In this document: positions 24,836 to 55,275 of the stretch, piece after piece
Numbering within the stretch: the first letter of the stretch is position 1
Layout: every line of letters starts with the position of its first letter
Translations under genes and position numbers: made by a program
The notes under the pieces: generated by a model
Database searches by the model: none
Seen by the model: the letters and a program-made list of their open reading frames with translations, nothing else
Told to the model about the DNA's origin: nothing
Source of the DNA: an uncultured Mycoplasmatota bacterium
GTDB lineage: Bacteria > Bacillota_I > Bacilli_A > RF39 > UBA660
NCBI GenBank assembly: GCA_949288035.1
Contig: CASEIJ010000031.1
Coordinates: 13,929 to 77,928 of the forward strand
Length of the DNA stretch: 64,000 nucleotides
Direction of reading: 5' to 3'

Positions 24836-25114
24836 TAATTATGTGAAAGCATGTGAAATCTATAAATCATATGAGAATGACTTTAAAAAAATAGGAAAGT
24901 ATGATATAATGAAATTGTCTAAAGGATAGGACCGATTTTAGAAAAACCTACTAAAGTAATGATTGGGAATCTAATTGGTAAATGGTGTTGAATACTTAAA
25001 TTTTGATTTAAGGATCCTAAAGTTTATCATGTGATGCCCACCTGGGAGATCAGGTTTTTGATCATTAGAGGTTCCCTTTGGACTTTTTTTATAAAGTTGA
25101 TAGGAGGCTTTTTT

Positions 25115-48467: not shown

Positions 48468-48635
48468 CTAATGTTGGTTACAACCGCCGCAGGCACGAGC
48501 ACCGATAACGATTACTAATAAAATAAATAATACTAAAATAATTGCTGCACCATATCCAGTACCGTAACCGCCACCGTATCCTCCGCCATATGGAGCACCA
48601 CAGCCATAACCTTGATATCCGCCATAGTAGTACAT
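48468..48635 (-). CDS. Tiny Gly/Tyr-rich membrane protein, YjcZ-family sporulation-type protein (55 aa)
   Basis: Translation 'MYYYGGYQGYGCGAPYGGGYGGGYGTGYGAAIILVLFILLVIVIGARACGGCNQH'. RBS 'ggaggt' 6 nt upstream. Below the 60-aa ORF-track cutoff. Confidence 0.65.
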   Translation of the reverse strand: MYYYGGYQGYGCGAPYGGGYGGGYGTGYGAAIILVLFILLVIVIGARACGGCNQH

Positions 48636-48758: not shown

Positions 48759-49931
48759 GTGAGTACAATGAGATTAAAACGATTTATTTCTGATATGGAT
48801 AAACCGCTTTTATTTGCAACGATCTTTCTTTTTATTTTTGGTCTTTTAAATATTGTAACCGCCTCTAGTAGTGAAGCAGTGACTTCTGCAGTCCCACTTT
48901 ATTATTATTTTTACCGCCATTTAGCCATGATAGGTGCTGGTTTTATCCTTACAATCATTGTTTTAAATATGAAGACAAATAGATATAAACCATGGGCTAT
49001 TATAGGGTATGTTGCGATTGTTATGTTGCTAGCATATCTTAGTATGTATGGATCAGATCACCGTGGTAGTCGAAATTGGATTAATTTAGGATTTATGCAA
49101 TTCCAACCGAGTGAATTTGCAAAACCTGTTTTAATTGTTTGTTTAGCTTTGTTATTTGAAAAATATTATTATCGTTTACGAAGTAAAAAATATAAACATT
49201 GGGATATGATTGCAAAAATCGTTGTCATTGGTGGATTAATTCCTTTTATTGTATTTACCCAAAAAGACTTAGGGACGATGTTTATTTTATTTTCTATCTT
49301 TGCTGTTATGTTTTGGGTGAGTCCAATCTTGCCAAAAGAAAAGTTAAAAACGATTGGTCTAGTTTTAATTATTATCATTGTTGCAGTATGTGCGAAAATA
49401 GCAGTTTCTGGTCATATTTTATCAGATGCGCAAAAAAGTCGTTTTGATTTTTTTAATCCATGTAGTAAATATGAAACTGGAGGTTATCAAATTTGTAATG
49501 GTATTATTGCTATTAATGATGGTGGTTTAATGGGATTAGGAGCAGGGAAGAGCAAACAAAAGTATTCTTATATTCCTGAACCTCATACCGATAGTGTCTT
49601 TGCTATTATTGCAGAAGAAGAAGGGTTTTTAAAATGTAGTATTGTTTTCTTATTATATATTATCGTTTTATACCGTATTTTAAACTTGTCTGCGAAAGCA
49701 AATACTGTTCGTGGTAGATATATTTGTATTGGTGTAGCAATTTATATTTTTATGCATATATTTTTAAACTTAGGTGGTCTTTTTGGTGTCATTCCATTAA
49801 CCGGAGTACCATTACCATTTTTATCCTATGGAGGATCTTTTACCATTTCATTAATGGTTGCACTCGCAATGGTACAACGTGTCAGTGTTGAAACAAAAAG
49901 AGAAAAAATAAAAATTCCAACCTTAAAGTAG
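48759..49931 (+). CDS. FtsW/RodA/SpoVE family peptidoglycan glycosyltransferase
   Basis: 10-TM SEDS protein with 'GYQICNG', 'EPHTDSVFA' and 'PLPFLSYGGS' motifs. Confidence 0.85.
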   Translation: MSTMRLKRFISDMDKPLLFATIFLFIFGLLNIVTASSSEAVTSAVPLYYYFYRHLAMIGAGFILTIIVLNMKTNRYKPWAIIGYVAIVMLLAYLSMYGSDHRGSRNWINLGFMQFQPSEFAKPVLIVCLALLFEKYYYRLRSKKYKHWDMIAKIVVIGGLIPFIVFTQKDLGTMFILFSIFAVMFWVSPILPKEKLKTIGLVLIIIIVAVCAKIAVSGHILSDAQKSRFDFFNPCSKYETGGYQICNGIIAINDGGLMGLGAGKSKQKYSYIPEPHTDSVFAIIAEEEGFLKCSIVFLLYIIVLYRILNLSAKANTVRGRYICIGVAIYIFMHIFLNLGGLFGVIPLTGVPLPFLSYGGSFTISLMVALAMVQRVSVETKREKIKIPTLK

Positions 49932-49969
49932 CAGGACTTCCTACTACTTTTTTTGTATATAAAAAGTAG
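49928..49969 (+). repeat. 42-bp direct repeat copy 1 (terminator hairpin)
   Basis: 'gtagcaggacttcctactactttttttgtatataaaaagtag', identical to 50488-50529. Contains a GUAGCAGGA/UCCUACUAC hairpin plus U-run. Confidence 0.85.
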
Positions 49970-50002
49970 TAGGAAAACGGAAGGGGATGATATGATGTCC
50001 CA

Positions 50003-50377
50003 ATGACTGTTGTAGGAATGTTTGATATTTCTAAGTATACAAATAAAACGTGTTCTTCAACTGAAGTTATTTTATTTTTAGAAAGAAAGCAACATATTTT
50101 AGAACACCATCCAGAAGTTGCTAATTATCTTAATTGTATTCCTAATATATTAAAATACCCTGATTGTATATTTTGGGAGATAAATCGTGAATCCACGATT
50201 TGGTTAGTTAAGAAATTTGATAAAAATATTAAATTAACTGTAAAGCTTAATTTTTCTCAAAATAAGAATTTGAAAAATTCTATTATTCAAATGCAGATTA
50301 TGAGAGAGAGCGAAGTTGATAGAAATATTCGAAATGGTAATATTATAAAATTGTTTGATAAAAATAATCCCATATAG
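50003..50377 (+). CDS. Hypothetical 124-aa protein inside a direct-repeat-flanked insert
   Basis: ORF with RBS 'aaggggatga'. No recognisable motif. Confidence 0.45.
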   Translation: MTVVGMFDISKYTNKTCSSTEVILFLERKQHILEHHPEVANYLNCIPNILKYPDCIFWEINRESTIWLVKKFDKNIKLTVKLNFSQNKNLKNSIIQMQIMRESEVDRNIRNGNIIKLFDKNNPI

Positions 50378-50487
50378 TATACTATTAGTAGGAGAGGTGG
50401 ACAATTTCGGCACGTCCACACACCTTATGGGTCAAAAGAGATGAGGGAGAATGTGCCGCCCTCCTCCTAAAAAATATTTTTTATTTT

Positions 50488-50529
50488 GTAGCAGGACTTC
50501 CTACTACTTTTTTTGTATATAAAAAGTAG
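50488..50529 (+). repeat. 42-bp direct repeat copy 2
   Basis: Perfect copy of 49928-49969. Provides the RBS context for comEA. Confidence 0.85.
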
Positions 50530-50541
50530 AGGAGGGAAAAT

Positions 50542-51183
50542 ATGAAAAAAATATCTATTTTATTATTACTTTGTTTATTTGTTATATCTTGTTCGAAGTC
50601 TGAAGATACAATTTCTTTGCAAGAGAAAAATGTACCATCAAAAGAAGAGAAGCAAGAAGAAAAAATGATTGCTGTTGATGTGAAAGGTGCTGTTTTAAAT
50701 CCTGGTGTATATGAGTTTTCTAAGGGGACTGTATTGGATGCGATTACGAAAGCAGGAGGACTTTTAGAAAATGCAGATACCAATTATTTAAATTTAAGTA
50801 AAAAATTAAAAGATGAAATGGTAATTTTAATTTATACAAAAGAAGAAATTGCTGATTTTGAAAATGGAAATCAGTTACAATTACCAATTGAAACTTGTGT
50901 TTGTCCAGAAATAAAAAACGATGGATGTCTAAAAGAAGAAGACGTGGTTACGAACCGAAAAGAAGAAGAAACTGTCACAGTAGAGGAAGGGCCACATGTG
51001 ATATCCATCCTAACTGCTACGAAAGAAGAATGGATGTTACTTCCAGGAATTGGAGAAACAAAAGCAAATGCGATTATTGAATATCGTAATACCAATGGTT
51101 TTCAAAGTATTGAAGATTTAAAAAATGTAAAAGGAATTGGCGATAGTACCTTTGAGAAAATTAAAGAATATCTTACTATGTAG
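50542..51183 (+). CDS. comEA: Competence protein ComEA (lipoprotein, SLBB plus helix-hairpin-helix)
   Basis: Lipobox 'LFVISCS'. C-terminal HhH 'LLPGIGETKANAIIEYRNTNGFQSIEDLKNVKGIGDSTFEKI'. Confidence 0.8.
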   Translation: MKKISILLLLCLFVISCSKSEDTISLQEKNVPSKEEKQEEKMIAVDVKGAVLNPGVYEFSKGTVLDAITKAGGLLENADTNYLNLSKKLKDEMVILIYTKEEIADFENGNQLQLPIETCVCPEIKNDGCLKEEDVVTNRKEEETVTVEEGPHVISILTATKEEWMLLPGIGETKANAIIEYRNTNGFQSIEDLKNVKGIGDSTFEKIKEYLTM

Positions 51184-53182
51184 TATATTATTTACTACTT
51201 GTATTGTTGTATATACTTGTTTAAAGCAAGGGTGGAATGTTCCTAAAGAAGAAGTAAATCAAGCTCGTATTATCGATTTTGAAATAACTGGTGATACATT
51301 AAAACTAGAATTAAAACAAAATCAAAACTATATCGCATATTATCAAATTAAAAGTTTACAAGAAAAGAAATGGTTAAGTAAAAATTTAGAATATGAAATG
51401 ATTATTTCTTTTCAAGGTGAATATCAATTACCAAGTACAAATACTAATTTTTATCAATTCTCATATCGTAATTATTTAAAAAGTCAAAATATTCACTGGC
51501 AAATTCAAATCGAAAAAATTAAAGCTTTAAAGCGTAATCACTCGTTTAAATCAATTGTTAAAAACGGGATTCAAAAAAGAATTGATCATATTCATTCAAA
51601 TGATACCTATTTAAGTTTATTTTTATTAGGGAGTAAGAAAAACTATGATGATGAAATTTATATGAAGCTTGGCGTTAGTCATTTGTTTTGTATTTCTGGA
51701 ATGCATTTTTCTTTCTTTTTAACTTTTTTTCTTTGCTTTTTTAAAGATCGTAAGAAAGCACAATTATATGCGTTTCCGGTGATGTTATTTTATGCTTGGC
51801 TCATTGGTTTTTCTATCTCTGTCATTCGTGTATTAGGTTCTATTTTGTTTTCACTATGTCATGGAAAGAAGTATTTATCTCTTCATGAATTTTATATGGT
51901 ATTTTTCTGTATATTGTTGTGTCTTAATCCATATCGTATTTACGATATTGGCTTTTTATATAGTTTTGTAGTAAGTGATGCTTTAATTATAAGTGCGTGT
52001 TACTTTCAAAAGAAAAAAACATTATCTAAAATGTTCATGATGTCTTTGATTAGTTTTATTGCGAGTATTCCTATTACTTTAACAAGTCAATACGAGTTAC
52101 AATTCACAAGTATATTATGGAATCTAATTTATATTCCTTTTGTCAGTTATATATTATTTCCACTTTCTTTTTTCGTACTGATTTTTCCTATTTGTTTTCC
52201 TATCTTTTCATTTCTCATATCTATTTTAGAGTATGGAAATCAAATCGCCGAAAAAATATTACCAAGTGCTGTTATTTTTAGAAAGCCAGACATTTGTTTT
52301 TATATCTTATTTATATGTTGTTTTTATTCTAAAAAATCTCTTCGTTATAAAACGATTATGATTGTTTGTTTATTATGTATTTTAAAAGTGACAACTTATT
52401 TTTATCCAAATGAATTGGTTATGTTTGATGTTGGACAAGGAGATAGTTTTTTGATTCGAGGGAAAAAAACAATTCTTGTGGATACCGGTGGCAAGTTTAA
52501 TTATCAAAAAGAAAACTGGCAATTGAAAAAAACAAGTTCTTATGCTGAAAGAGTCATTATTCCATACTTAAAAGCAACTGGAATTATAAAAATTGATCAT
52601 TTGATTCTTACACATGGTGATTATGATCATATGGGTGAAAGTATTAATTTAGTAAATAACTTTAAAGTAGAGAAAGTAATATTCAATTGTGGGCCACATA
52701 ATGATTTAGAACAAGAATTAATTAAAGTATTACATAAAAAGAAAATACCATATTACAGTTGTATCAAAGAATTAAATATAGATGATAATAAATTATACTT
52801 TTTAAATAATAAAGATTATGGTAATGAAAATGATAATTCAAGTGTAATTTATACAGAACTCAATAAACATAAATTTCTATTTATGGGAGATGCTGGTGTA
52901 GAAGTAGAAGATGATTTAATAGAAAAATATAATTTACAAAATATAGATGTATTAAAAGTAGGACATCATGGAAGTAAAACAAGTTCAAGTGAAGAATTCA
53001 TAGGTGAGATAAATCCAAAATATTCAGTAATTAGTGTTGGAAAGAACAATAGATATGGTCATCCAAATGATAGTGTATTAGAAAATTTAGAAGATAGTAA
53101 AATTTATAGAACAGATGAAGATGGAAGTATTATGTTTAAAATTGATAATGATAAATTAAAAATTAAAACATGTGCACCATAG
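51137..53182 (+). CDS. comEC: DNA internalization competence protein ComEC/Rec2 (complete, with C-terminal metallo-beta-lactamase domain)
   Basis: Multi-TM competence domain. MBL motifs 'HLILTHGDYDHMGE' and 'VGHHGSKTSSS'. TTG start uncertain (overlaps comEA). Confidence 0.8.
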   Translation: MAIVPLRKLKNILLCSILFTTCIVVYTCLKQGWNVPKEEVNQARIIDFEITGDTLKLELKQNQNYIAYYQIKSLQEKKWLSKNLEYEMIISFQGEYQLPSTNTNFYQFSYRNYLKSQNIHWQIQIEKIKALKRNHSFKSIVKNGIQKRIDHIHSNDTYLSLFLLGSKKNYDDEIYMKLGVSHLFCISGMHFSFFLTFFLCFFKDRKKAQLYAFPVMLFYAWLIGFSISVIRVLGSILFSLCHGKKYLSLHEFYMVFFCILLCLNPYRIYDIGFLYSFVVSDALIISACYFQKKKTLSKMFMMSLISFIASIPITLTSQYELQFTSILWNLIYIPFVSYILFPLSFFVLIFPICFPIFSFLISILEYGNQIAEKILPSAVIFRKPDICFYILFICCFYSKKSLRYKTIMIVCLLCILKVTTYFYPNELVMFDVGQGDSFLIRGKKTILVDTGGKFNYQKENWQLKKTSSYAERVIIPYLKATGIIKIDHLILTHGDYDHMGESINLVNNFKVEKVIFNCGPHNDLEQELIKVLHKKKIPYYSCIKELNIDDNKLYFLNNKDYGNENDNSSVIYTELNKHKFLFMGDAGVEVEDDLIEKYNLQNIDVLKVGHHGSKTSSSEEFIGEINPKYSVISVGKNNRYGHPNDSVLENLEDSKIYRTDEDGSIMFKIDNDKLKIKTCAP

Positions 53183-53198
53183 AAAGGAGAACAAAAAA

Positions 53199-54029
53199 AT
53201 GAATGAAATAAAAGAATATACAGAAAAATTATTTGAAAATATAAAACATATAGATGAAAATGGCAATGAGTATTGGTTGGCTAGAGAATTAATGCCATTA
53301 CTTGAGTACAACAAATGGGAGAGATTTTCTAATGCAATAGAATATGCAAAAACATCTTGTATAAAAAGTGGTTATAATGTTAGTGACCATTTTCCCGAGG
53401 TTGGGAAATTGGTTCAAATAGGTTCAAAAACAAACAGAAAATTGAAAGATTATAAACTATCAAGATATGCATGTTATTTAATAGTACAAAATGGTGATTC
53501 AAGAAAAGAAGCAATAGCTTTAGGTCAAACTTATTTTGCGATTCAAACTAGAAAACAAGAGTTAAATGAAAAAGAATATAGTAAGCTTACTGAAGATGAG
53601 AAAAGATTTTATCAAAGAGATTTAACTAGAAAAGGAAATTATTCTTTGAATATTGCTGCTAGAAATGCTGGAGTAAAGAACTTCGATAAATTTCATAATT
53701 CAGGTTATAAAGGATTATATAATGGAGAAACAGCAAATGATATTGCAAGAAGAAAGAAACTTAGATATAGAGAAGATATTTTGGATAACATGGGCAGTGA
53801 TGAATTAATTGCAAATTTATTTAGAATCTCTCAAACAGAACAAAAATTAAAGAATGAAAATATAAATTTAGAAAGTAAAGCAAATGAAACTCATTTTGAA
53901 GTTGGAAAGGAAATCAGAAATACAATTAAGAAACTTGGTGGAACAATGCCGGAAGATTTGCCAACTCCAGATAAAAGTTTGAAAGAGTTGGAAAAAGAGA
54001 ACAAAACATTAAATGTAAAAAATGTATGA
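53199..54029 (+). CDS. dinD: DNA-damage-inducible protein D homolog
   Basis: Colinear similarity to E. coli DinD: 'YWLARELMPLLEYNKWERF', 'LSRYACYLIVQNGD', 'GQTYFAIQTRKQEL', 'HMGSDELIANLFRISQTEQKLK', 'THFEVGKEIRNTIKKLGGTMPEDLPTP'. Confidence 0.8.
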   Translation: MNEIKEYTEKLFENIKHIDENGNEYWLARELMPLLEYNKWERFSNAIEYAKTSCIKSGYNVSDHFPEVGKLVQIGSKTNRKLKDYKLSRYACYLIVQNGDSRKEAIALGQTYFAIQTRKQELNEKEYSKLTEDEKRFYQRDLTRKGNYSLNIAARNAGVKNFDKFHNSGYKGLYNGETANDIARRKKLRYREDILDNMGSDELIANLFRISQTEQKLKNENINLESKANETHFEVGKEIRNTIKKLGGTMPEDLPTPDKSLKELEKENKTLNVKNV

Positions 54030-54058
54030 TATAATGTATATATAGGATGTGATAAATT

Positions 54059-54631
54059 ATGTTAATAGTTGAAGTTGGGTTTAAATTAGATAAGACTTTA
54101 GAATACTATGATAAAATTTTAAAAATGCATGGATTAGAAAATGATTTTAATTGTGAAACACATGATATATATTATACAAAAGATAATTTAAATGAATTAA
54201 CAGAAAATGAAATGAAACAAAAGTGTATTCGCTTAAGAAATGTAAATTTTAAAGAAGGATATAAAGTAGAAAATAAATTGTTAGATTCATTGAATATTGA
54301 TTTTGTTAATGAAAATGAACTTCTTGATTTTGAAAACAAATTAAAAGAAAATGGATATTTAAAAGTTTTCGATACTAAAAAGAAAGATCATCATTATTAC
54401 AAAGAAGGAATGAACACTAAAGTACAATTACAGGAAATTGACGATATAGGGTTACTTGTATATTTAGATAATTCAAACTATTATGAATTACCTTTAGAGG
54501 AACAAAGAAATAAATTAATTGATGAATTAAATAGTTATGGATTTGATTTTAAATATACGGATTTAGGATTAGATAAACTTAGGACATTATATTATCAAGA
54601 AAAAAAATATAGTAAAAATCAAAATGGTTAA
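54059..54631 (+). CDS. Hypothetical 190-aa protein co-located with dinD
   Basis: ORF 30 bp after dinD. No confident motif; faint resemblance to CYTH/triphosphate-tunnel fold elements ('HDIYYT', 'IRLRN'). Confidence 0.45.
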   Translation: MLIVEVGFKLDKTLEYYDKILKMHGLENDFNCETHDIYYTKDNLNELTENEMKQKCIRLRNVNFKEGYKVENKLLDSLNIDFVNENELLDFENKLKENGYLKVFDTKKKDHHYYKEGMNTKVQLQEIDDIGLLVYLDNSNYYELPLEEQRNKLIDELNSYGFDFKYTDLGLDKLRTLYYQEKKYSKNQNG

Positions 54632-54705
54632 AGCAGAACTACATAAATGTAGTTTTTTCTTTGGAAATAAAGTGTTTTACTCGACTTACTTTTTGACAAT
54701 CAGTA

Positions 54706-55275
54706 CATGGCGATTATGATCATATGGGGGAGAGTATTTCATTTGTAGAACATTTTCCAGTTAAAAATGTTATATTGAATCATGATACTTATAATGATTT
54801 AGAACAAGAATTAATTTTTCTTTTAAAAGAGAAAGGGATTAATTATTTGCAGAATGTAACATCCATTTCTGCAGCAGATTTACAATTACAATTCTTAAAT
54901 CATACAATGTATGATAATGAAAATGATAATTCAAATGTGATATATTTTGGGTTTGGTAAGTTAAACACTTTACTTATGGGAGATGTTAGTAACAAAGTAG
55001 AGACAGATTTATTAGAACAATATCAATTTTCTCATATTGATATCTTAAAAGTAGGACATCATGGTAGTAAAACTAGTACATCAGAGCAATTGATTGAAGC
55101 GATTACTCCACAATATGCATTTATCTCGGTTGGGAAAAATAATCGTTATGGACATCCTAGTAAACAAGTTTTAAATCATTTGAGACAATCCAAAGTTTAT
55201 AGAACAGATGAACATGGAAGTGTTGTTATAAGAAATGTTTATGACCATTATGTGATGAAAACTTGTATCTATTAG
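54706..55275 (+). pseudogene. Relic duplicate of comEC 3' end (metallo-beta-lactamase domain fragment, no start)
   Basis: Encodes 'HGDYDHMGESISFVEHF...VGHHGSKTSTSEQ...KNNRYGHPSKQVL...KTCIY', about 55% identical to residues from 'HGDYDHMGE' to the end of the intact ComEC. In-frame stop immediately upstream; no N-terminal part. Confidence 0.75.

Follow-up and report, generated by a model that had tools for sequence, protein, structure and literature searches.

A small cassette with a predicted PBECR3-type nuclease ORF and a skipping-rope RNA between ftsW and comEA of an uncultured Mycoplasmatota bacterium

The stretch analyzed here, 64,000 nt of contig CASEIJ010000031.1 from an uncultured Mycoplasmatota bacterium (hereafter the window), carries between a ftsW/rodA-family gene and comEA a cassette of about 558 bp that is bounded by two direct repeats and comprises a 124-aa open reading frame (ORF) of the PBECR family followed by a skipping-rope RNA (Table 1); the identities of both the ORF (PBECR family) and the RNA (RF02924) are settled. 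The repeated 42-mer GTAGCAGGACTTCCTACTACTTTTTTTGTATATAAAAAGTAG is present in exactly two copies in the window with 0 mismatches between them, as the sequence-only reading of this DNA had stated; no such pair was found in 100 shuffles, and it is the sole long direct repeat of the region. Folding confirmed that in each copy a hairpin of -6.9 kcal/mol, whose stem has one C.A mismatch, is followed by a T-run, in agreement with their earlier description as terminators. The ftsW stop codon TAG (49929-49931) falls within the left repeat, and the ribosome-binding site (RBS) of comEA, AGGAGGG (50530-50536), lies directly 3' of the right repeat. In close relatives the repeat measures 46 bp, its left copy extending through AGGA (49971-49974 in the window), and it is 42 bp long in the window because an extra T at 49970 splits GTAG/AGGA.

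Table 1. Features of the cassette and its flanks, with positions in the window
Feature	Position	Strand	Assignment and remarks
ftsW/rodA-family gene	48759..49931	+	Pfam FTSW_RODA_SPOVE, E 1.5e-80
Left repeat, attL-like	49928..49969	+	ftsW terminator hairpin 49928-49947, T-run and GTATATAAAAAGTAG
ORF leader	49979..50006	+	Shine-Dalgarno-like GGAAGGGGA and four-codon upstream ORF (MMSQ and stop)
124-aa PBECR3-family ORF	50003..50377	+	Pfam PF18812; BECR/RelE-like fold, predicted endoRNase domain
Promoter of the RNA, sigma-70-type	50355..50383	+	TTGATA-17-TATACT, 10/12, best promoter match in the region
Skipping-rope RNA	50387..50471	+	Rfam RF02924, 51.3 bits vs gathering score 36.7
A/T-rich spacer, RNA to right repeat	50472..50487	+	belongs to the transferred unit
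Right repeat, attR-like	50488..50529	+	hairpin and T-run, terminator of the skipping-rope RNA
comEA, downstream flank	50542..51183	+	Pfam, SLBB and HhH domains

The ORF matched PBECR3 ("phage-Barnase-EndoU-ColicinE5/D-RelE like nuclease 3") with a marginal 32.4 bits against a curated cutoff of 30 and stayed under the cutoff of PBECR2, and its relatives match one or the other of the two families. An exhaustive HMMER search returned 100 homologues, many of them proteins of 450-550 aa with the domain at the C-terminus; the full-length homologues are Phage_min_cap2 or Phage_Mu_F head proteins encoded between the portal and capsid genes. The AlphaFold2 model of the ORF, calculated from 23 sequences, reached a predicted local distance difference test value of 95.5 and shows helices at residues 26-35 and 37-51 with strands after them, which fits the PBECR core of an N-terminal helix and four to five strands. 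Foldseek comparison identified the RNase toxin BrnT and a Salmonella toxin-antitoxin (TA) toxin as the closest solved structures (probability 0.97-0.99), and a minor capsid protein (template modelling score 0.82, E 1.6e-9) and the MuF-C domains of polyvalent proteins as the best viral matches, while a profile search of the PDB by sequence found nothing. All of the 23 aligned sequences have His31, which lies in the first helix, and nearly all have Ser93, a layout that corresponds to the active-site arrangement given by Iyer et al. for PBECR domains, namely a histidine carried by the N-terminal helix together with a C-terminal serine or threonine (Iyer et al., 2017, PMC5512222). Endoribonuclease activity of PBECR is itself a prediction in the literature (PMC5512222). 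Thus, the 124-aa ORF noticed from the letters of the sequence is a real one, and from its family and its modelled fold the protein may be an RNase and toxic. Searches for cultured-phage relatives in 50,697 GenBank phage records, by tblastn with the ORF and by blastn with the RNA, gave no match.

The ORF had also been credited with its own RBS. A Shine-Dalgarno-like element, GGAAGGGGA (49979-49987), is indeed present, only that it lies 15 nt upstream of the ATG and that the ORF start is overlapped (ATGA) by the stop of a four-codon upstream ORF (uORF) at 49992-50006. The uORF is conserved in loci L001-L003 and L027; in L009 it is missing and the start codon of the ORF is likewise lost. We consider that the uORF may limit translation of the 124-aa protein. 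No promoter is evident for the ORF itself, which is placed behind the weakened left hairpin, with its start coupled to the uORF. Among close alleles of the ORF, synonymous exceed non-synonymous codon changes, with counts of 4 to 3, 6 to 4, 8 to 1 and 10 to 3.

The RF02924 match of the segment downstream of the ORF spans the full covariance model (positions 1-80 of 80). The three complementary pairs that had been seen there turned out to be parts of one RNA: helix P1 (aggagagg/cctcctcct; 50389-50395 with 50463-50469), helix P2 (gtggac/gtccac; 50397-50401 with 50415-50419), after which P3 and P4 follow, and a loop-loop pseudoknot between cggcac (50408-50413) and gtgccg (50453-50458). In an alignment of 15 sequences, 99% of the cells in 27 pairs were paired and 10 pairs had changed on both sides, a support that was not reached in any of 500 shuffles nor approached by any slid register; the pseudoknot helix contributes two covarying pairs. 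The segments CAAAAGAGAUG and ACACACC are conserved. Minimum free energy folding of the segment was unimpressive (z = -1.8), because the pseudoknot is not modelled. The earlier description of a structured RNA-like segment was therefore correct as to structure, and in place of a generic RNA or a terminator the segment is a member of RF02924. An anti-Shine-Dalgarno role of the CCUCCUCC strand of P1 was dropped, since P1 covaries as a helix and the sequence of L024 differs there. In the window no tRNA or tmRNA was found, and the only other Rfam family is 6S RNA (RF00013, 57.9 bits) at 24913-25088 on the plus strand.

The promoter of the RNA is interleaved with the end of the ORF: its -35 box lies within Phe-Asp-Lys codons near the C-terminus, its -10 box abuts the stop codon, and the predicted transcription start at about 50390 coincides with the first base pairs of P1. 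Nearly all related loci share this layout (tttgataaaa, 17 nt, ta[ag]tataat, with the RNA 4-12 nt past the ORF stop), and it is kept even where the proteins are just 42-60% identical. Transcription would end at the hairpin and T-run of the right repeat, 17 nt downstream of the RNA, and phage copies have their own hairpin and T-run. This is in line with Weinberg et al., who describe skipping-rope RNAs as ending in a Rho-independent terminator (Weinberg et al., 2017, PMC5737381). A consensus terminator scan found none at the structured segment, whose helices are not directly followed by a T-run, and a plain intrinsic terminator at 50385-50470 is ruled out by the RF02924 match, the covariation and the promoter of its own.

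Orthologous loci located through FtsW homologues revealed both empty and filled sites. In lineages with FtsW 81-84% and 67% identical to that of the window, ftsW is followed directly by comEA, and in L038 the repeat has one homologous counterpart, made up of hairpin, T-run and RBS. In lineage P0103, whose FtsW is 95% identical to that of the window, L211-L214 are empty and L027 is filled; the empty site reads ...CTTAA[GTAGCAGGAGTTTCTGCTACTTTTTTTGTATATAAAAAGTAGAGGA]GGGATTATATG, i.e., it holds a single 46-bp copy. The FtsW of L027 is the same as in L211-L214 over the part present on its contig, and the alignments of its two flanks to L211 overlap by exactly 46 bp. The left copy in L027 has the resident hairpin, whereas the right copy has the hairpin of the window type, differing by three substitutions, and is followed by comEA of the resident type. 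The second repeat therefore arrived with the cassette and was not created by duplication of the target at insertion, and the chimeric state of the copies fits a crossover in the shared 3' part of the repeat (TTTTTTTGTATATAAAAAGTAGAGGA). L009 is chimeric too, with a perfect left hairpin and a right copy that joins an imported hairpin to a 3' variant of the resident type.

The same exchange is seen in the identity profiles. Between the window and L027, ftsW is 86.6% and comEA 88.8% identical, whereas the ORF is 97.6% and the RNA, the spacer (50472-50487) and the right repeat are 100% identical, the spacer being unchanged despite the differing flanks. Between the window and L009, ftsW is 89.7% and comEA 97.0% identical, the ORF 82% with its start codon lost, the RNA 97.6% and the repeat 97.6% (one mismatch), and the spacer is only partly alignable. 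These profiles show that the history of the cassette is decoupled from that of its flanks. Insertion, presence/absence polymorphism and import of the second repeat are regarded as settled, and the cassette is horizontally exchanged. As in att-flanked cassettes, empty sites have one copy and filled sites two, one copy comes from the element, and the bounds of the exchanged tract are the repeats; the repeat acts as an attachment site, not as the footprint of a transposition. Moreover, in a lineage with FtsW 80% identical to that of the window (L029/L030) only the RNA and its -10 box follow ftsW, with one terminator. L029, L030 and L031 encode an identical FtsW protein and differ immediately past its stop codon, L029 having the RNA only, L030 the RNA and then unrelated sequence, and L031 unrelated cargo and a different terminator, which indicates a recombination hotspot. 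A metagenome scan with the repeat, run in search of empty sites, yielded one filled site only. No terminal inverted repeats were seen on reading both cassette ends, no dedicated inverted-repeat search having been run.

Two other origins of the repeats were considered. A transposase target-site duplication or a local tandem duplication, with the structured segment as the intrinsic terminator of the ORF, would agree with the perfect identity of the copies in the window and with the T-rich tract after the structured segment, but the right copy of L027 differs from the site of L211-L214 at three hairpin positions and matches the window type. In addition, 46 bp is far longer than usual transposase duplications, and the segment, with 51 bits for RF02924, a covarying pseudoknot and helices lacking a direct T-run, was negative in the terminator scan. 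We regard this origin as very improbable, the transposase-type duplication in particular being ruled out by the comparison of L027 with L211. Less credible still is a dif-like Xer site at the replication terminus, with the cassette as an integrative mobile element exploiting Xer recombination (IMEX). It would find support in ACTTCCTA within the repeat, which we take to match the start of the Bacillus subtilis dif site, and in the position of the locus at about 52% of the 1.26-Mb record of the metagenome-assembled genome; against this, the rest of the repeat is unlike dif, the genes on both sides lie on the same strand, and GC skew is positive across the whole window. The lack of a skew switch near 50 kb led us to reject such a site.

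Taken together, the interpretation offered by the sequence-only reading was partly supported and largely right in spirit. Insertion of a miniature element agrees with the related lineages that have a single repeat copy between ftsW and comEA, the empty sites it had suggested looking for being those of L211-L214 and L038, and a toxin/immunity-like cargo agrees with an ORF that is a predicted RNase toxin domain. Its proposal of a target-site duplication failed on the donor-type right copy of L027. It had named as contrary outcomes a uniform two-copy arrangement among relatives and a structured segment that is simply a terminator, and neither was found.

Two observations concern the surroundings of the locus. 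Upstream of ftsW, a 55-aa ORF without Pfam family (48468-48635, minus strand; MYYYGGYQGYGCGAPYGGGYGGGYGTGYG...) has a Tyr/Gly-repeat N-terminus and a hydrophobic tail; a gene of 51-67 aa lies at the matching site in the relatives examined. Downstream, at 53172-55266, a gene with a Bro-N domain overlaps the end of comEC, and after it, at 54706-55266, comes a second, diverged C-terminal part of ComEC that shares 54.5% identity with residues 493-679 of ComEC. L009 lacks this island and has dnaG directly after comEC, and a DUF1016/YhcG gene is found instead in L028.

The association of the protein with the RNA was examined from both sides. Starting from the protein, nine genome and seven viral loci (sample 1) and 53 loci obtained with a MuF-type PBECR query (sample 2) were analyzed; RF02924 was present on the same strand beside the domain in 69/69 of these loci and directly after the domain in 68, the samples being dominated by a few closely related phage families with many near-identical members. 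In sample 1 the RNA was on the same strand in 16/16, following the stop codon by 4-12 nt in 15 and lying just upstream of the ORF in L019, where the ORF is frameshifted; in sample 2 it was directly downstream in 53/53, a subset of which was confirmed at Rfam's own thresholds. From the side of the RNA, viral contigs scanned with a sequence pattern gave at least 120 stretches; 80 loci were listed and 72 of these confirmed with the covariance model, so that further copies of the structured segment, which the sequence-only reading had proposed to look for, were found by either route. A PBECR-family domain was nearby in 30 of the 72 confirmed phage RNAs among the loci listed. The remaining 42 had none when the whole loci were searched, so that a universal association of the RNA with PBECR was not found. 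The settings of the PBECR-free copies vary: they lie upstream of the terminase gene, beside one for DUF3800 or behind a tail-completion gene, and in several such phages the minor capsid protein is without the C-terminal domain. Individual loci without PBECR nearby include L057 (7895-7978) and its neighbours, with the RNA between a gene for a protein with an AcrIC5-like C-terminus and terminase, L060 (4903-6402), with the RNA between a Bro-N anti-repressor and a DUF3800 gene, and L089 (1935-2011), a phage contig that also has a RAGATH-21 RNA and a tRNA. Two related-locus scans with other divergent PBECR domains gave no confirmed loci.

Hence, within the sample the protein never occurred without the RNA and the RNA often occurred without the protein. 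An intact RNA accompanies an ORF without its start codon in L009 and a frameshifted ORF in L019, and in L029/L030 it persists with no ORF at all. Some loci have two tandem RNA copies; in L158 (1895-2092) and L039 (2452-2642) these directly follow a PBECR gene and both are above the gathering score.

The genetic organization in phages indicates where the cassette came from. In the prophage-like locus L012 the order is terminase, portal, minor capsid 2::PBECR, skipping-rope RNA and downstream ORFs, and derivation of the cassette from a phage head-gene region is regarded as settled. At least three chromosomal sites have the domain in shortened or stand-alone form together with the RNA, namely the window, L019, where they lie after yqeY, and L013/L014. 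In L013 (3428-5469) and L014 (3539-5469) a 204-aa PBECR ORF and the RNA directly follow the last repeat of a type II CRISPR array (66-nt period) that is preceded by cas9-cas1-cas2 and an unassigned ORF, and Fic/DOC lies downstream. Iyer et al. have speculated that PBECR RNases might target CRISPR RNAs (PMC5512222). The domain and the RNA are a unit that was kept in each of the three independent chromosomal captures.

Two rivals to our preferred reading of the linkage were considered. If the RNA were an obligatory cofactor, guide or substrate of PBECR, activating or targeting the RNase in a ribonucleoprotein enzyme with no inhibition, the same strict linkage (69/69) would be expected; the RNA is moreover conserved, complex and pseudoknotted, an architecture that Weinberg et al. 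tie to sophisticated biochemical function (PMC5737381), and it also lies beside the nuclease-like DUF3800, which has a predicted RNase H-like fold (PMC10910872). However, truncation (L009), frameshift (L019) or deletion (L029) of the protein gene has left the RNA whole and almost without change, and the RNA is also found in phages with a minor capsid protein that is without this domain. Such a role is disfavoured, since decay of the enzyme should have brought decay of an RNA dedicated to it, and we consider it unlikely. A merely positional linkage, in which an independent phage small RNA (e.g., a regulator or an anti-defence decoy) and the domain share no function and the cassette is a prophage remnant, would explain the 42 of 72 listed phage RNAs that have no PBECR within reach and varied contexts, as well as the RNA's own promoter and terminator and the RNA-only chromosomal loci. 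It does not sit well with three independent captures that kept precisely the domain and the RNA, with a promoter interleaved with conserved C-terminal codons, with the synonymous excess in the ORF, with a polymorphic cassette that is exchanged as a unit and shows no decay in place, or with the finding that no PBECR of the ORF's clade was without the RNA in the sample; we judge it improbable as well.

The explanation we prefer is that the RNA is an antidote to the protein. Following this, we propose that the cassette carries two partners. One is a predicted RNase domain of PBECR3 type that stands alone here and that in phages forms the toxin-like C-terminus of a minor-capsid or MuF protein; the other is a skipping-rope RNA, whose transcription would start from a strong promoter of its own within the last part of the ORF and stop at the right repeat. 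The RNA would bind the RNase and neutralise it, as a type III-like antitoxin or immunity RNA, and on its own it could protect against RNases of the PBECR family that arrive from outside. The cassette lies in the 46-bp sequence of the ftsW terminator and comEA leader and has its own copy of that sequence; it would have been inserted through recombination in the 3' part of the repeat and with neither flanking gene disrupted, either by a single crossover of a circular form or by two very short crossovers; excision would presumably occur by crossover between the two repeats. The mechanism of recombination and the enzyme responsible are conjectural here.

The antidote role is favoured because the dependence of protein on RNA is one-way, because the RNA survives where the ORF is damaged or gone, because some loci have tandem RNA copies, because a strong RNA promoter stands against weak expression signals of the ORF, and because synonymous changes in the ORF are in excess. 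Other points weigh against it. RNase activity, toxicity and RNA binding of PBECR are predictions only, and PADLOC has no model that matches the 124-aa protein, by which a known defence-system protein is also ruled out as its identity. The count of 69/69 overstates independence, since near-identical phages reduce the samples to about 10-15 lineages, and the many phage contexts without PBECR imply that the RNA may act independently of it. Conservation is far higher in the RNA than in the protein: where the proteins share 42-60% identity, the adjacent RNAs are almost alike. For a specific TA pair this is unusual unless the RNA mimics a conserved substrate. Furthermore, the cassette encodes no recombinase, 26-46 bp is short for RecA-dependent recombination, and the arrangement as described by Weinberg et al. 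looks looser than the one here (PMC5737381). On balance, we have moderate confidence that the protein and the RNA work together, and from genomic linkage and its asymmetry neutralisation of the RNase by the RNA appears more likely than the alternatives; that the whole is a phage-derived RNase toxin and RNA-antidote module on a mobile cassette of about 558 bp has, in our estimate, not quite an even chance. More tentatively still, skipping-rope RNAs in general might serve as immunity or antitoxin RNAs for BECR-fold RNase domains on phage MuF and minor-capsid proteins. They would then form a new type III-like TA class that has one pseudoknotted RNA, which might mimic a substrate, in place of the protein immunity gene of polymorphic toxins, with orphan copies as portable immunity and the 558-bp unit as a minimal mobile form integrating at a terminator hairpin.

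The locus reduces the question of skipping-rope function to two parts in 560 bp, one of them a predicted RNase toxin domain, and natural controls exist in the RNA-only site, the damaged-ORF alleles and the empty sites. If the RNA is an antidote, RNA-antitoxin systems would reach the very large BECR/RelE toxin superfamily, phage tolerance of an RNase domain on their own capsid protein during virion assembly would be explained, and a new kind of exchangeable immunity RNA would take part in conflicts between gut phages and their hosts. The cassette is, besides, a clean example of a mobile unit the size of a gene that attaches at a sequence made up of terminator and leader.

Weinberg et al. reported a compelling association of skipping-rope with a nearby protein, which is named in their supplementary text; they tested the RNA for self-cleavage and found none, and for the related DUF3800-associated motifs no specific hypothesis of function was obvious to them (Weinberg et al., 2017, PMC5737381). 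No later work on skipping-rope function was found in the literature searched. The RNA described here resembles the published motif in its full-model match, in the same helices and pseudoknot, in the terminator after it and in the specific protein nearby, and it differs in that the partner is a PBECR domain, the order of ORF and RNA is fixed, the promoter is interleaved and the whole forms a tiny mobile cassette. The ORF shares family, fold and the conserved His and Ser/Thr with the PBECR domains of phage MuF/minor-capsid and polyvalent proteins (PMC5512222); the full-length relatives are fusions to MuF or minor capsid 2 in head-gene clusters, whereas here the domain stands alone in a chromosome. 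Most MuF polymorphic toxin genes have a small immunity gene after them (Jamet et al., 2017, PMC5576092), and in our case a structured RNA gene, not a protein gene, occupies the position at which the downstream immunity ORF would be expected.

With the type III TA systems ToxIN, CptIN and TenpIN (PMC3401426, PMC5086642) the locus has in common a protein of endoRNase type, here a predicted one, an adjacent pseudoknotted RNA and links to phages, as well as the tandem RNA copies of some PBECR loci. It differs from them by a BECR/RelE-like fold instead of a ToxN/AbiQ-like one, and by a single unit of about 85 nt that lies downstream under its own promoter instead of an upstream repeat array with a terminator before the toxin. 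At most two tandem RNA copies occur, in some phage loci, in place of a type III array; without the defining type III architecture the locus would be a new variant if the antidote role holds. From work on ToxIN and phage TE, phages can reportedly carry the RNA alone. Small integrative cassettes with att-like flanks and no recombinase of their own exist, e.g., the cis-mobilizable elements of streptococci. Like these, the present cassette has direct repeats of the target, one of them brought in, leaves the flanking genes undisrupted and is polymorphic in presence; unlike these, it measures only 0.56 kb and uses a terminator hairpin plus the leader of the downstream gene as its site. RF02924 and PBECR are both known families, and the cassette is a new minimal mobile form of a hitherto unexplained RNA-protein pairing.

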